From assembly GCA_964106915.2 (NCBI GenBank), contig OZ066919.1: a stretch of DNA of 64,000 bases; one strand, given 5' to 3'. Below, in pieces: positions 8,619 to 47,234 of this stretch (positions within the stretch are counted from its first letter, which is position 1; each line of letters opens with the position of its first letter). The notes beneath the pieces are model-generated. The model ran no database searches, was not told the origin of the DNA, and saw only the letters and a program-made list of their open reading frames with translations. A program made the translations under genes and the position numbers. The DNA comes from Podarcis gaigeae. Taxonomy: Eukaryota.

Positions 8619-8995
8619 TCATAGACTCATAGAATTGCAGAGTTGGAAGGGATCCCAAGGCTCATTTAGTCCAACCCCCTGCAATGCAGAAATCTCAACT
8701 AAATCAGGCATGGCAGATGGCAGTCTAACCTCTGTGTAAAAAACCTCCAAGGAAGGAGAGTCCACCACCTCTCACAGGAGTCCATTCCATTGTCGAAGAG
8801 CTCCTATTGTCAGAAAATTATTCCCAATGTTTTGTCGGAATCTCCTTTCTTGTAACTTGAAGCCATTGGATCAGGACCTAGCCTCTGGAGCAGCAGAAAA
8901 CAAGCTTGCTTCAGTTTCCATGTGACAGCCCTTTAGATATTTGAAGATGGCTTTTATATCTCCTCTCGGTCTCCTCTTTACCAGGCTAAACATAA
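8619..8995 (-). mobile_element. CR1 LINE 3' end
   Basis: Minus translation MFSLVKRRPRGDIKAIFKYLKGCH is the CR1 ORF2 C-terminus; terminal (tctatga)n repeats at about 8619-8634. Confidence 0.9.
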
Positions 8996-9082: not shown

Positions 9083-9219
9083 CACTGATGGCCAAACTTG
9101 GCCCTCCATCTGTTTTGTGACTACAGTTCTCATCATCCCTAACCACTGGTCCTGTTAGCTAGGGATGATGGGAGTTGTAGTCCCAAAACAGATGGAGGGC
9201 CAAAGTTTGGTCATCACTG
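9083..9219. mobile_element. Hairpin hAT MITE
   Basis: Near-perfect inverted arms gatggccaaacttggccctccatctgtttt / aaaacagatggagggccaaagtttggtcatc; flanks share actaac. Confidence 0.85.
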
Positions 9220-11132
9220 GTACTAACCCATGCTTGGACCAAATATTCTGCAATATCTGACTGCAAGGCTGTGAAACAGTTGTCTGGGGAATTTGAGTGA
9301 ACAAGGGGGGGCAGGAGGAACATATCTTTTAAAAGCAGCCATAAGTAAAGCTCTGCCTCCTGCTTTTCCTTGCCTGTGTTATGATCAGTGGGTACTTGCA
9401 TTATTTCTTTGTAAAGTTATTCACTCAGGAGGGCCCAAGCACTGGCTTCTCACACTGATAACAAACTCTAGCGAAGACCACAGCTGAATGTCGGCCCTTT
9501 CATGAAAGGTCATACGGTATCTATTGAGAGATGCTAACAAGATGTTGCCCAAACAAATCAAAAGCACAGCTTACAGGAGGAAAGGGAGATCACAGTGGAA
9601 GGGCATGCATTGTATGCAATCTCTGTGGCAGCTTTACCCCAGCTCCCAAGGGCCTTTCCAACATATAAATGAGCCCTTCAGAATATTTAAGTACAATTGG
9701 ATCTTCATGCCTAAGATTCACATTTCAAAAAAACAGTGCCATGACTGACACAATTAATGGTCTCCATTCTAAAATAACACCTGCATGACTAGCATCCTTG
9801 TCTCTGAAGCTTAAGGGAAGGGCCCTGGGACCTAGGCTGCCAGCATCACCACCACTCAGTATCAATCACGGGTCTTGCAAATGATCCCTGTGCTCCAAGG
9901 GAAACACCTAAGTTGTAGTAACAGCCCTGTCTGAGTACTTCATCAGTTGATCCTCGAGACCCAGGCTCTGACCACCAGGTCCCATAAAGTCCTGGAACTT
10001 GATCATCAGAGAGCACTTTGCCAGACTAGGCTTCTGTATCTTTCTCCTGAACTGCTACTCGTTTCACAACTCAACACTATGCCCGTTTGTGTTGGTTGGA
10101 CTGCACAACCTGCCTCAGGCCCTTGAATCTTCAATTGCAACTTGACACCTCTTGTCTGCCTCTGGGTAAAGGGATTCAATTCATTTCTCATTTAAAAGGG
10201 CAGAGCACCAAATGGGAAGAAGAATAAGGTAGACATCTCATGGATGTGAAGTTCCATATGTTTATTAGCCCCAGATAACACCTCAAAAATAAACCAAATA
10301 CTTTTGTACAGCAGATATTAATATCTAATAATGAAATGAATTAATTGTGTTTGCCGCTGTCATTGTTTATAAGAGTCGTAACAATATGTTATGGTAGCCC
10401 CACCACTAACAAAATAAGGCTGTTTTGCAATGCTCAGGGGAATAGGCTACCAACAGAGTGTTGTTATTGGAAGATGTCCAATAACCAGCCTGGACTTAGG
10501 CTATTCACCTCATTATCATCATCATCATCATCATTTTATTCGTATGCTGCCTTTCCATAGTTGAAACTATGCTCAAGGCGGCTTACAACATGACAAGACT
10601 TACATAGTTACCAACATAACAGAAGTCATAAACAATAAATTAAACACATCAAAAAGTACACAACCAAATGGAAACAATTTCCACATAAATCATAAGATCT
10701 AAAACTAAAGCTACAACAAGAATATCAATAACAGCAACAGCTCTCTCAACCCCCCGTAAACAATACTCCAGCCCAAGAATCTGTTCAACAGCTTCAGCTT
10801 TTGTAGCTGGAGTCAGTCAGCACTCCACTCTCCCAGGCCAGATGGGAAAGGGCCAACAAGGCAGGGTGCAGGTCTTCCAGTGCTCAGAGCCAATATGGTC
10901 TCATTTAAAACAACACAGATAAAAATTAAAACAATTTAAAAGCAGCTGCAGTCCTTGTAAAGCCTGTCAAGCCCCGCCCCAAGCCAGGTGGAAAGAGGCA
11001 AGGGCAGGGTCTTTCAGGCCCTCAGCAGGCAATCCTCAAGAGCCTGTCAGGCCCCTCGAACTGCACTTAGAAACTAACTAGGAGCTGATGAAGTTTCTAG
11101 GGCACAGATGAATAATGTTCATTGCCTAACTA

Positions 11133-11448
11133 CCGTATTTTTCGCCCTATAGGACACACCGGCCCATAGGACGCACCTAGTTTTTTTGGGGGGGGGAATT
11201 CCCCCCCCCCCACGCTCCGGGCAGCAGGCTGCAATCCGCAGCCTAGGGAGCCCTGCGGGAACTCCCAAGGGCTCCTCAGGCTTGCTGATAGCTTCCTGAA
11301 GCCTGGAGAGTGAGAGGGGTCAGTGCACACCGACCCTTCTCACTCTCCAAGCTTCAGCAAAAGCCTGCATTCGCCCCATAGGACGCACACAGATTTCCCC
11401 TTTATTTTTGGAGGGGGAAAAGTGAGTCCTATAGGGCGAAAAATACGG
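11133..11448. mobile_element. Tc1/mariner (pogo-like) MITE
   Basis: Perfect TIRs ccgtatttttcgccctataggac / gtcctatagggcgaaaaatacgg; TA TSD. Confidence 0.92.
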
Positions 11449-11968
11449 TAGTTCCAGTCTAAAACCTGGACTCAGAATTTTGCTCTGCTTGTATGCTGCC
11501 TCTGTGCCTACTTCATTATTAAGATGATGGAACTTTAATGAATAAATAAATTATATTTATACAAATTATTGACTCTTGATCCATCCCTACTTTGGGCCCC
11601 TCCTATGTTATTAATATGCAAGAAAATATATTTTATAATGAAATATATGAATATATGAAATGAGAACGGGCCCTGTTCTTCATTGTATAGGTGGCCCACT
11701 TGAAGTGATGGTTCCCATTAGCCTTAGGAATCTGGAAGCTATTCCTCAGCTAGGATTGGCTTCTGACAAGGGCAGTTCCATCCAGTAAGCAGTCCACTTC
11801 AGCTGAGTGTGTGACTATGATTGCTGAGACACAGTCTTGGTCAGTGAGGCCAATGGAGCACTGCCTGGTCCAGAAAAACCGTCATTCTATTCAGAATCTT
11901 GGGGTTCTTTCTAAACAATAGTATGCTGAAAGCAGCATTAGGATGAATGTCTTTGTTCAGTGATCCTG

Positions 11969-14799: not shown

Positions 14800-15003
14800 A
14801 CTTGGATGGCTTCAAAAAGAGCATCAGTCAAACTGATGGAGGATAATGCTATCCATGGCTACTAGCCATGATGAATATGTTCTACCTCTACTGTCAGAGG
14901 CAGCATGCCTCTGAATACCAGTTGCTGAGAATCACAAGTGAGCAGATCACTCTTGTGCTCAGGTACTGCTTTTGGGATTCCCAAAGGCATCTGGCTGGCC
15001 ATG
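14800..15003 (+). mobile_element. CR1 3' UTR fragment
   Basis: gatggcttcaaaaagag...atggaggataatgctatccatggctactagcc...ctgaataccagttgctg; a homologous copy lies at 41950-42122. Confidence 0.7.
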
Positions 15004-19230: not shown

Positions 19231-19923
19231 TGTGGGGACTTAACTCAATTGTCAATACAATTGCAGGACTAGAAAGTTTGGTAAGTACGCAGTCAAGGAT
19301 AGTTCAACAAGGGATGTGTGAAAAGAGGGCATTTATACAACTGTTCCTCAGGCAGGGGGACCCACAACATGCCTTGTTCCAGGGTCTTTCATTCTATACA
19401 AGAAACAGGAATTTGATACATATATAGCTCAAAGCATTGCTAATTGTTCGGAAAGCCTAGAAGGTTCAGCATTTGTTCATGTTTCGTGAAACATACGCCA
19501 GTGTAATCGAGGTACATTTCGTGCATAACTTCCCAGGGGTCTTTGATATTTATGTACCAAACTTCAACATATGAGAAAAAGTCAGGAAATGGGACATACC
19601 TTTGACTGTCAGAAAACCCAATGCCTGTAATTTCTATTTCTCCCCTATGGGGTAAGAAGCAATTGTATGGATTGTCTGCGTTGGGGTTGCAATGTGAGGG
19701 AGGTGCAAGAGTTAAATCCCTCCCCTAGTGCTGCAGCTGAACAGAAATGCATTTCATTGTGTCTGTTTCAATGAATGAAAAAGAAGTTTGAAGAGCCAGC
19801 CATGGATTTCCTGTATTGTGATGTGTTTGGGCTTGGCTTTCAAAACTAGGCCTTAGATGAAATGTCTTGCAAAGGATTTCCCTTGCCTTTTTATGAAGCA
19901 ATCTTTTTAGCTAATGTTCAACA
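19231..19923 (-). mobile_element. Possible solo LTR
   Basis: TGT...ACA termini; on the minus strand a TATA-like tatatatgta followed by a tataaa and a pyrimidine-rich U5-like end. No TSD was found. Confidence 0.3.
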
Positions 19924-28941: not shown

Positions 28942-29360
28942 TTCTAGCTGGAAGGAGTGAGGGTAGCGTAAGTAGTATATCATTTCCTGAACCCTGCATC
29001 AACACTATTCCAGGGATGGGGAACCTATGTTGTTGTTGGACTTCAACTCCCATCATCTCTGAGCAATTGCCATGCTGGCTGGGAATGATGGGAGTTGCAG
29101 TCTAACATCACTGGGTGGGGACCTCACAAGTACCCCATTCCTGATCTATACATATGAATGTATGTATATGTATGAACGTGGTATGGATTCATTCACACGA
29201 ACAGCAAAGCAAGTGGTAAATTGAGCCTCCAGTTCCCACTGTTTGGCAGTTGTGGAGTATCTGCAAAACTCACTAAAAATGTATGAACTCCACGTTCGTT
29301 ATAAGTAGCATACAATTCACTTTATGTATCCTAGAATCCAAAATAATTAAATGTCTCACA

Positions 29361-29448
29361 CTGCAATCCTATGCATGCCTACTTAGAAGTATGTTCCATT
29401 GTATTCAGCAGGTGTTCTCCCCAAGTGAGTGAGTTTAGGGTTGCAGCC
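29361..29448. repeat. About 90-bp imperfect-hairpin interspersed repeat
   Basis: ctgcaatcctatgcatgcctactt...aagtgagtgagtttagggttgcag; related copies at about 1191-1280, 12520-12607 and 21547-21772. Confidence 0.6.
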
Positions 29449-29973
29449 ACATTTTCCTTCAAGACCCTTCTTGTTTCTTTCTTCATGGGTAGGATACAAG
29501 ATACTAAAATATTCACAAATAGGGAAAATAGAAATTCCCCACCCTGCTTCCACTCTGAGATGATGATACAAATAAAGAATTTTTTCAGGGTTGTGGGTTT
29601 TTTTAGGTGTACTTCTTGAAAGCTGAAGTCAAGAGACTTGTTTCTGAGCTGTTTTCACACTTTACATTTTTAGTGAGTTTTGCAGATACTCCACAACTGC
29701 CAAACAGTGGGAACTGGAGACTAAATTTACCACTTGTTTTGCTGTTCATGTGAATGAATCCATAGCCAAAGCAAGTCATTTCAAATGCCATTTTCTTTCT
29801 GAGATATAAATAAGTAGAGAAAATAACGTACTTTCACTATATGTGTACCTTTTCCAGGAAAGGTTCAAGTTCAATTCTTGTTTGTTTGTTTGTTTGTTTG
29901 TTCCATTTCTATCCTACCCATCCTCTCAAAGGAGTCCAGGCAGCCAACATCAAAGTGGAAAAACAATACAACT

Positions 29974-30264: not shown

Positions 30265-30964
30265 CCATCAAAAAGAAAGAAGAACATACTTAAAACATTT
30301 CAAAACAGTTAAAAGCATCCAAAAACAAGCAAAATAGTCACAAACTCTCATGACTAATAACTTCAAGGTTGCCAGGAACAGTGTACTTGGGTCATCAAAT
30401 GCACAAATGTTTTAAAGTCCTCCTAGGAAGTTCATTAAGTGGAAGACAGATGCACTTCACTAGGAAGGCCATTCCCTAAACAGGGAAACCATGACATCAA
30501 GGCCCAATCACATGCCTTTGCCAACTGGTTGTATCCAGCAGCAGCGGCAACACCAACACTACCAATAAGGCTTCCTGTTATTAAACCCTCCCTACATGGG
30601 CAGACCTTGGTAATGTGCCATCCTGGGCGATTCCACTTATTATTCCACTTATTATATGGGGAAACGTGATCAGAAGGTACATTTGCCAAACATACAGTAC
30701 ATGTTGGGATTTTGCTACGTGCTTTGATCCAGCTTTTTCACAGAACAATTAGTGAGTTGGCCGAAGGCCAGGAAGATTGAGCAGAGGGAGTTTTCTGCCT
30801 GGTGAAATGGGAACCTTGGATACAGGTCTGCTATTGGTCGAGGTCACCCATATAGACATAATGACACATGACCTCTCTGTTGGTTGGTCTGTTTGTAGGA
30901 AAGTCTTGGAGTTAGCTGAAGTTTGTTCAGAGAGAGAGTTACTCAGAAGGCTGGTGGGAATGGG

Positions 30965-31115
30965 TGAGTAATACCCCTCCCCACCTTCTCACTATATAGA
31001 AGGGTCTGGAAACTTCTGTTTCAGTGTATCTGAAGAAGTGTGCATGCACACGAAAGCTCATACCAAGAACTGACTTAGTTGGTCTTTAAGGTGCTACTGG
31101 AAGGAATTTTTTTTG
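30965..31115 (+). mobile_element. Penelope-like element terminal (pLTR) fragment
   Basis: ctatata...ctgaagaag...cgaaagctcat...ttagttggtctttaaggtgctactgga, the typical reptile Penelope-like end carrying a hammerhead motif. Confidence 0.75.
31026..31063 (+). ncRNA. Minimal type I hammerhead ribozyme motif
   Basis: Stem I gtat/atac; core CTGAAGA (31030-31036); palindromic stem II gtgtgca/tgcacac; GAAA (31052-31055); AGCT palindrome in place of stem III; predicted cleavage after the UC at 31059. Confidence 0.8.
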
Positions 31116-46470: not shown

Positions 46471-47234
46471 TGATTAGAAGACTTGGGAGAATAGACAGAA
46501 TCCCCTGCTGCCAGCTCTGAGAATCCTGAGGGGAACCTCCCCAGGGCTGCCTCTTGAAGAAACTCTCTTATGAGCCCTCAGGCTGAGCTCCAGGCAGCAG
46601 ATTGGTCAGGGATAGGTCAAGTCACCTTACAGTCCTCAAGTGTGCAGGCATCTAAAGATTCAAACCTTGGCCGCAGGCCTACAACAAGGTGCATGCTTGA
46701 AGAACTCAAAGTCATTGTAATGGAGGTGTAAAGAGCTGCTTGAGAGAATGGGTACATTTCAAGAAGAAGGACTATCAGAACACATCAGTGGCAGATGGGA
46801 TTAGGGATCCCCCTGGGAGGCCTTTGAGCAGGCATAGGCAAACTCAGCCCTCCAGATGTTTTGGGACTACAACTCACATCATCCCTGACCACTGGTCCTG
46901 TTACCTAGGGATGATGGGAGTTGTAGTCCCAAAACATCTGGAGGGCCAAGTTTGCCTATGTCTGCCTTTGAGCTTCTGAGTTGCTGGAACAGCACGTGTA
47001 CTCTGTACAACTTAGCTGCTTGTTTTGGCTTCCTAACCTGCCTGATCTTGTGCTATTGGCCCCTGGATCCCTGATGATCGAATGCTGCCTACTTTTGGAC
47101 TGTCTATGTTGTCTTTGTTGTATGACTCTGCTATTGGACCATGCCTGCTCTCGGATGGCCTCACTGTACTTAATATCGGCTTTGCAAGACAATGCATTTC
47201 TCAGTTGCCCCGATATCTGACTGCTACCAGAACA
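46471..47234 (+). mobile_element. Probable solo LTR (Gypsy-like), interrupted by a MITE
   Basis: Purine-rich U3-like half, pyrimidine-rich reiterated U5-like half ending in ...agaaca. The 5' end abuts a SINE tail and no TSD is visible. Confidence 0.45.
46829..46964. mobile_element. Young hairpin hAT MITE
   Basis: Near-perfect inverted arms of about 60 bp; perfect 8-bp TSD cctttgag. Confidence 0.93.

Follow-up and report, generated by a model that had tools for sequence, protein, structure and literature searches.

The window analysed here is a stretch of 64,000 nucleotides from Podarcis gaigeae (contig OZ066919.1 of assembly GCA_964106915.2). On its plus strand, the window carries a short motif with the layout of a minimal type I hammerhead ribozyme, placed within what is very probably a truncated terminal repeat (pLTR) of a Penelope-like element (PLE). 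The features identified at the locus, all on the plus strand unless marked otherwise, were as follows.

30702-30941: 5' half of an older, unrelated LTR-like repeat (at least 40 other places listed, at 76-88% identity)
30939-30967, minus strand: stub of 29 bases from an inverted (head-to-head) partner arm, the reverse complement of the adjacent pLTR, with a junction like that in loci L002-L005
30965-31118: forward arm, a 5'-truncated pLTR that ends in a T-run and is without the tail of about 35 nt (95-100% identity to many genomic copies; in longer copies continuous with the end of the ORF)
within 30992-31000: TATA-like box, likely the promoter of the element, about 33-34 nt upstream of the position where copies begin
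31024-31026: putative start of transcription in the family, mainly at G31026 (5' ends of copies pile up here with an extra G)
31026-31063: minimal type I hammerhead motif (descriptor match, position numbering and 9,021 exact genomic copies)
31026-31029 and 31060-31063: stem I, 4 bp
31030-31036: core C3-A9, CTGAAGA
31037: extra A between positions 9 and 10.1
31038-31051: stem II, a perfect 14-base palindrome closed by G10.1 (31038) and C11.1 (31051)
31052-31054: core G12-A14, GAA
31055-31058: AGCT palindrome replacing stem III (15.2-16.2 palindromic)
31059: C17
31083-31094: segment predicted to pair with 31026-31036 and so to mask the hammerhead core in longer RNA (ViennaRNA only, with no covariation behind it)

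Re-reading of the window at 31026-31063 gave the same 38 plus-strand bases that had been reported by an earlier, sequence-only reading, and the layout of core, stems and palindrome proposed there was borne out by position numbering and by shuffled controls. All positions of the hammerhead core were present, namely C3-U4-G5-A6-N7-G8-A9, G12-A13-A14, A15.1, U16.1 and H17. The helix I of 4-5 bp, the G10.1-C11.1 closure and the single base between positions 9 and 10.1 that characterise hammerheads of the PLE type were also found. Since C17 is position 31059, cleavage is predicted between 31059 and 31060. As a monomer hairpin, stem II has 5 bp and a 4-base loop. The full descriptor with both stems matched the window once and matched none of 100 dinucleotide shuffles. 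The core boxes without the stems occurred near chance level (8 matches versus 5.4 expected), and the folding energy of the motif was ordinary (z -0.44). The Rfam scan that the sequence-only reading had put forward as a check returned no hammerhead match at E values up to 10, with either a 4 kb or a 91-base query, and this miss probably reflects a limit of the models for motifs lacking stem III. The 53 hammerhead copies compared for stem covariation were nearly invariant and showed no compensatory pairs, which is attributed to the family being too young, and a search for alternative stem II types found only four rearranged copies.

The motif resembles the metazoan PLE hammerheads described by Cervera and de la Pena in 2014 (PMC4209133) in its helix I of 4-5 bp, the unpaired base between 9 and 10.1, the G10.1-C11.1 pair, the palindromic 15.2-16.2 in place of a real helix III, the location in the pLTR and the occurrence mostly as dispersed truncated copies. 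That paper reports minimal hammerheads from Xena, Poseidon and Neptune elements and from turtle and snakes. Two differences from the hammerheads of that paper were apparent. Stem II is here a self-complementary 14-mer forming a 5-bp hairpin, whereas helices of 7-8 bp are described there, and the copies here are identical by the thousands, whereas high variability is described there for most genomes.

The exact 38-base hammerhead occurred 9,021 times in the animal's own genome and an exact 18-mer from the 3' end of the pLTR 18,969 times, with no occurrence of the reversed control in either case. The segment just downstream of the cut site was found at 14,943 genomic places, and the segment just upstream of the hammerhead at only 3,610. 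In longer copies, the pLTR is preceded, without a break and on the same strand, by an ORF that encodes a reverse transcriptase (RT) followed by a C-terminal GIY-YIG nuclease; this coding sequence is known from other copies, as the window holds the pLTR only. The ORF carries the RT motif YIDD, the linker CNKPRCQLC, a CQQC between the nuclease boxes and two later histidines. When two of the proteins were compared with Pfam, GIY-YIG scored above the cut-off in both, and RVT_1 was seen in one of them below the cut-off (E 7.9e-5). A query with the ORF end gave 1,065 candidates, of which 40 were scored, and all 40 were 100% identical, which indicates that the family is very young. Downstream of the T-run and the tail of about 35 bases, tandem copies enter the start of the ORF. 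A near-complete copy, L228 (1-3400), comprises an inverted arm, a pLTR, an ORF of 610 aa that has suffered an internal loss, and another pLTR. None of the 20 stretches examined contained a fully intact ORF, the longest being 610 aa.

A CX2-5CxxC linker together with a CCHH nuclease motif defines the Neptune clade (PMC8557442), and both were found in the family. Judged by motifs, the linker favours Neptune (or Nematis) over Poseidon. Further likeness to Neptune as described by Craig et al. in 2021 (PMC8557442) and Arkhipova et al. in 2013 (PMC3846280) was seen in the order of RT and C-terminal GIY-YIG, the linker and the CCHH motif, as well as in the 5' truncation, the inverted pLTRs, a tail of 30-40 bp at one end, the variable target duplication and the TATA box in the pLTR. 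Nematis shares the linker motif according to PMC8557442.

The proposal of a minimal hammerhead in a Penelope-like terminal repeat thus stands, on thousands of genomic copies and on the linked RT and GIY-YIG coding sequence. We consider it very likely (probability about 0.9) that a young and abundant Penelope-like retrotransposon, likely of the Neptune clade, carries this motif as a minimal hammerhead in its terminal repeat, and that the window copy is a truncated and probably inert insertion. This is a known kind of element, and the window copy is nothing special among 9,021 identical motifs. The lack of an Rfam match would also be expected of a chance match, and the short partial tandems of hammerhead-bearing units in the family recall a retrozyme, that is, a tandem element instead of a Penelope-like pLTR. 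Non-LTR retrozymes (bioRxiv 10.64898/2026.07.22.740005) are likewise short non-coding hammerhead units derived from PLE pLTRs and are often monomers; they are defined there as tandem arrays with a hammerhead per unit, unlike the window copy, which is a single arm with an inversion stub. We regard both explanations as extremely improbable: none of the 100 shuffles gave the descriptor, the locus has no tandem array, and the unit is continuous with the RT-EN ORF, a linkage that refutes them. Elsewhere in the window, positions 8854-8940 hold an old fragment resembling the coding region of the same element (79.5% over 88 bases). In the genome, L007 and L008 (G000:C17, 12.6 kb apart) are the same insertion with near-identical flanks, the product of a local segmental duplication.

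The sequence-only reading had described a solo copy. This is correct for the assembly as it stands, but the stub at 30939-30967 is the inner end of an inverted partner arm, and the window copy resembles one arm left over from a head-to-head pair more than a true solo insertion. Stub and forward arm overlap by three bases, TGA, at 30965-67. The loci L002-L005 have the same type of junction, but there the partner arm is whole, with a tail and a target duplication; around the window copy both are absent, and its left end is missing. The stub is cut at TTA (30939-41), which it has in common with the neighbouring older LTR-like repeat, and that repeat is itself truncated where the stub starts; its other copies start with TG and extend about 200 bases further. 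Complete copies of this repeat end in CAACA, and several carry other insertions just past the point where the window copy stops. The missing partner arm and the missing half of the older repeat were both absent from the rest of the window.

The status of the site could be read in organisms A, C and E among the related organisms A-E compared. In public DNA contigs, C and E had an empty site and both runs labelled A carried the insertion, which is therefore recent. Upstream of 31119, the empty-site organisms carry 418 (C) and 1,242 (E) other letters. In all six runs (X1, X3, X4, X5, X6 and X7), a unique contig departed from the window at 30936-30941, with 8-29 unmatched letters. The left junction of the window is either a private deletion or a misassembly. 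An assembly error at the palindrome, with an intact head-to-head pair and two hammerheads at the real locus, is a serious possibility, which we give a little less than an even chance. The departure of all six runs at 30936-30941 speaks for it, as these include both runs with the best-matching species label, which do carry the right-hand junction, and so does the lack of a target duplication and tail beside the window copy. A private deletion allele fits equally well. The junction has 3-base microhomology, and the lost DNA includes a part that is not palindromic, namely about 200 bases of the older repeat and at least the 418-1,242 bases seen in C and E. An assembly error would bear on the structure of the locus only and is compatible with the identification as a probably inert Penelope-like insertion. 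The window copy reaches upstream of the putative transcription start, so its source would be the 3' repeat in RNA from read-through transcription. The copy is likely an ordinary truncated scrap and inactive. A spliceosomal intron at 30968-31024 (GT..AG; skipped by one X4 contig) was considered and rejected, as no spliced copies were found in the genome.

The motif of the window copy is intact and its TATA box is kept, as might be expected if the host used the hammerhead at this locus to cut a plus-strand transcript or to regulate a neighbouring gene. Such use is very improbable in our view. With 9,021 identical copies, intactness reflects only youth; organisms C and E have an empty site; masking of the core is predicted for longer RNA; and family copies lose G12 through CpG decay. 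When 53 full hammerheads were compared, 34 were identical and 19 were variants; seven of the 19 were changed at the single CpG, and five of these seven had lost G12. By these comparisons, dispersed copies of the family decay neutrally.

The local minus-strand exons to which the motif had been said to lie antisense were not confirmed. None of 147 minus-strand stop-free stretches of at least 48 aa between 12 and 52 kb matched Pfam, two homologue searches and five PDB searches with candidate exons gave nothing significant, and a splice-site heuristic likewise gave no confirmed gene, so that host exons were confirmed on neither strand. Other parts of the window showed features of their own. At 19497-19644 (minus strand) there is an exon-like segment with acceptor, donor and an open frame of 49 aa, for which the homologue search was empty. 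The segment 4900-5420 is GC-rich with long open frames on both strands and is possibly a promoter island. At 29182-29764, inverted arms of 102 bases, 96% complementary and 379 bases apart, look like a young miniature DNA transposon, and 11128-11453, with terminal inverted repeats of 32 bases (97% complementary) and an internal hairpin, is also miniature-transposon-like. A hairpin repeat family is present at 9088-9203, 29031-29119 and 46828-46965; its copy at 29 kb matches Rfam microRNAs far below the gathering score.

The pattern of insertion was studied in a sample of 101 arms, made up of the 100 matches that head the list for contig C1 and one from an examined stretch. A tail was present in 46 of the 101 and absent in 47, and the other eight were intermediate. 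These arms included 23 head-to-head pairs, of which 21 had exactly one tail, two had no tail and none had two tails. A target duplication of at least 8 bases was found in 17 of the 23 pairs (9-15 bases, plus one microsatellite). The architecture of EN+ PLEs, with pLTR-ORF-pLTR, inverted 5'-truncated arms and a one-sided tail of 30-40 bp, was thus seen in the family; the window arm is tail-less. A tail on one side only has been noted for rotifer PLEs (PMC3846280). By analogy, the pattern of one tail per pair fits the two-strand priming from two internal sites reported for an Anolis Poseidon. LINE-1 also forms inverted insertions with discrete target duplications, which are explained by priming on both strands (PMC11702581). 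Unlike in L1, where the second priming is described as internal and random (PMC11702581), both arms share the 3' terminus here, one with the tail and one without.

Among the same 101 arms, 28 had their 5' end in 31020-31029 and six in 31055-31064, with none at 31060. Genome-wide, 3,582 copies carried a non-template base (not T) before G31026. The base preceding G31026 was G in 73, A in 15 and C in 12 of the first 100 listed, to which binomial tests were applied. In the first 30 loci, 19 cases with G were inspected and none extended into the upstream sequence of the element itself; in five of the 19, the extra G possibly came from an inverted arm ending in CTTCAG. A second class of starts, at 31024, showed no clear extra G and often lay at microhomology (GTGT). 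A non-template base at C17 was found in only 166 copies, against 14,943 arms covering that part (about 1%), and 12 of 30 such cases inspected were point variants; the count of 3,582 includes older subfamilies and that of 166 does not, and the two are not strictly comparable. Neither the 101 arms nor the genome-wide C17 count showed a pile of copy ends at the cleavage site.

In the partial tandems at several loci (L186, L189, L190, L195 and L229-L245), a piece of the ORF start, different in length from case to case, adjoins the start of a new hammerhead, often with an extra G between the two. Where the new hammerhead started at 31026, six of six such junctions carried the G, and six further junctions had it as well (one possibly templated). 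Of the other ORF-to-hammerhead junctions, ten started at 31024 and one at 31027. The likely origin of these partial tandems is template jumping at the RNA 5' end.

In full-length LINE-1 insertions, an extra G at the 5' junction is described as the mark of a copied mRNA cap (PMC11702581), and the extra 5' G of the present family is alike. The pile at 31026 with the extra G and the lack of a pile at the cut site together suggest an RNA that begins with the ribozyme and serves uncut as the template for reverse transcription. As far as genomic copies can tell, a capped RNA likely starts at the first base of the hammerhead and is mostly copied uncut. The TATA-like word noted by the sequence-only reading is present at 30992-30998, 34 nt before the motif, and probably serves as promoter of the element itself, with transcription beginning at the first base of the hammerhead. 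A literature search (main text of mostly open-access papers) found no report of a cap-derived G at PLE 5' ends.

The pile at 31026 might also arise with no capped start, through stalling of RT at the base of an RNA helix or through fold-back microhomology, combined with non-templated addition of C. Stem I and the predicted masking helix both begin at G31026, as stalling would have it; microhomology fits the five of 19 inspected G cases, and the starts at 31024 often lie at GTGT. However, G exceeds C (73 versus 12), a comparable pile is missing at other truncation points, and the spacing from the TATA box is canonical. The G is also found at ORF-to-hammerhead template-jump junctions without an inverted arm, as in the six of six at 31026 and the six more given above. 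We therefore hold stalling or microhomology to be unlikely as the source of the pile and prefer a capped start at G31026.

The Poseidon element PAc of Anolis carolinensis (Frangieh et al. 2024, PMC11167929) has its hammerhead near the 5' end of the RNA, and both target strands are cut and extended. Reverse transcription of PAc starts internally, at two sites that flank the tail, and mainly uses uncut RNA as template; no read is reported to end at the cut. The genomic pattern found here matches all of these features. Unlike PAc, the present family has the CX2-5CxxC linker, which Penelope/Poseidon elements are described as lacking. The ORF of the family begins about 140 nt past the first base of the hammerhead, whereas that of PAc starts inside stem II (PMC11167929).

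In ViennaRNA, the pair probability of stem I was 0.74-0.85 in a 50-mer and at most 0.01 in a 93-mer and a 154-mer; pairing of the core with 31083-31094 is predicted once the RNA extends to the T-run. Nearest-neighbour energies give -11.1 kcal/mol for the active-type AGCU dimer. That is no gain over two separate monomers (-12.0), and pairing through the stem II palindrome yields a far more stable dimer (-30.6), so activity as a dimer is not assured. Single minimal motifs are described as inactive and dimers as of low activity (PMC4209133), and cleavage by the Anolis Poseidon hammerhead is reported to depend on the protein of the element (PMC11167929). For RNA that reads through an intact pair, the predicted fold is a single long hairpin in which the hammerhead is buried. 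Nothing suggests hammerhead action at the window locus.

A possible life cycle of the element is as follows. The TATA box would drive a capped RNA starting at stem I, and the protein of the element would nick both strands of the target. Uncut RNA would be the template for reverse transcription, which would begin internally at two points, one on either side of the tail. Priming in the 5' leader would account for the many copies of about 100-130 bases, and priming in the 3' repeat for longer copies such as the window copy, which would then have lost most of its partner arm plus flanking DNA (or the assembly would have dropped them). The ribozyme would cut slowly after C31059, and only as an AGCU-paired dimer or with help from protein. 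A bolder idea follows from a hammerhead at +1 of a capped mRNA. Cleavage would remove a capped leader of 34 nt and could serve as a decapping switch, triggered by the dimer or the protein, that throttles an abundant RNA, while SINE-like, cap-marked copies would arise by the thousand from uncut RNA with priming inside its 5' leader. We offer this tentatively and think it rather unlikely to hold.

The interest lies in the family, with its likely cap-marked start and its strict pattern of one tail per pair, and little in the single copy. The family is a large and very young natural record of PLE mobility, a mechanism poorly resolved so far. For a Neptune-type element, its genomic copies support a mechanism in which both strands prime from two internal sites on uncut RNA; the previous evidence for this was obtained in vitro with one Poseidon. 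An exact start at the first base of the ribozyme would recast the function of the PLE hammerhead as a question, namely whether cutting decaps the mRNA.
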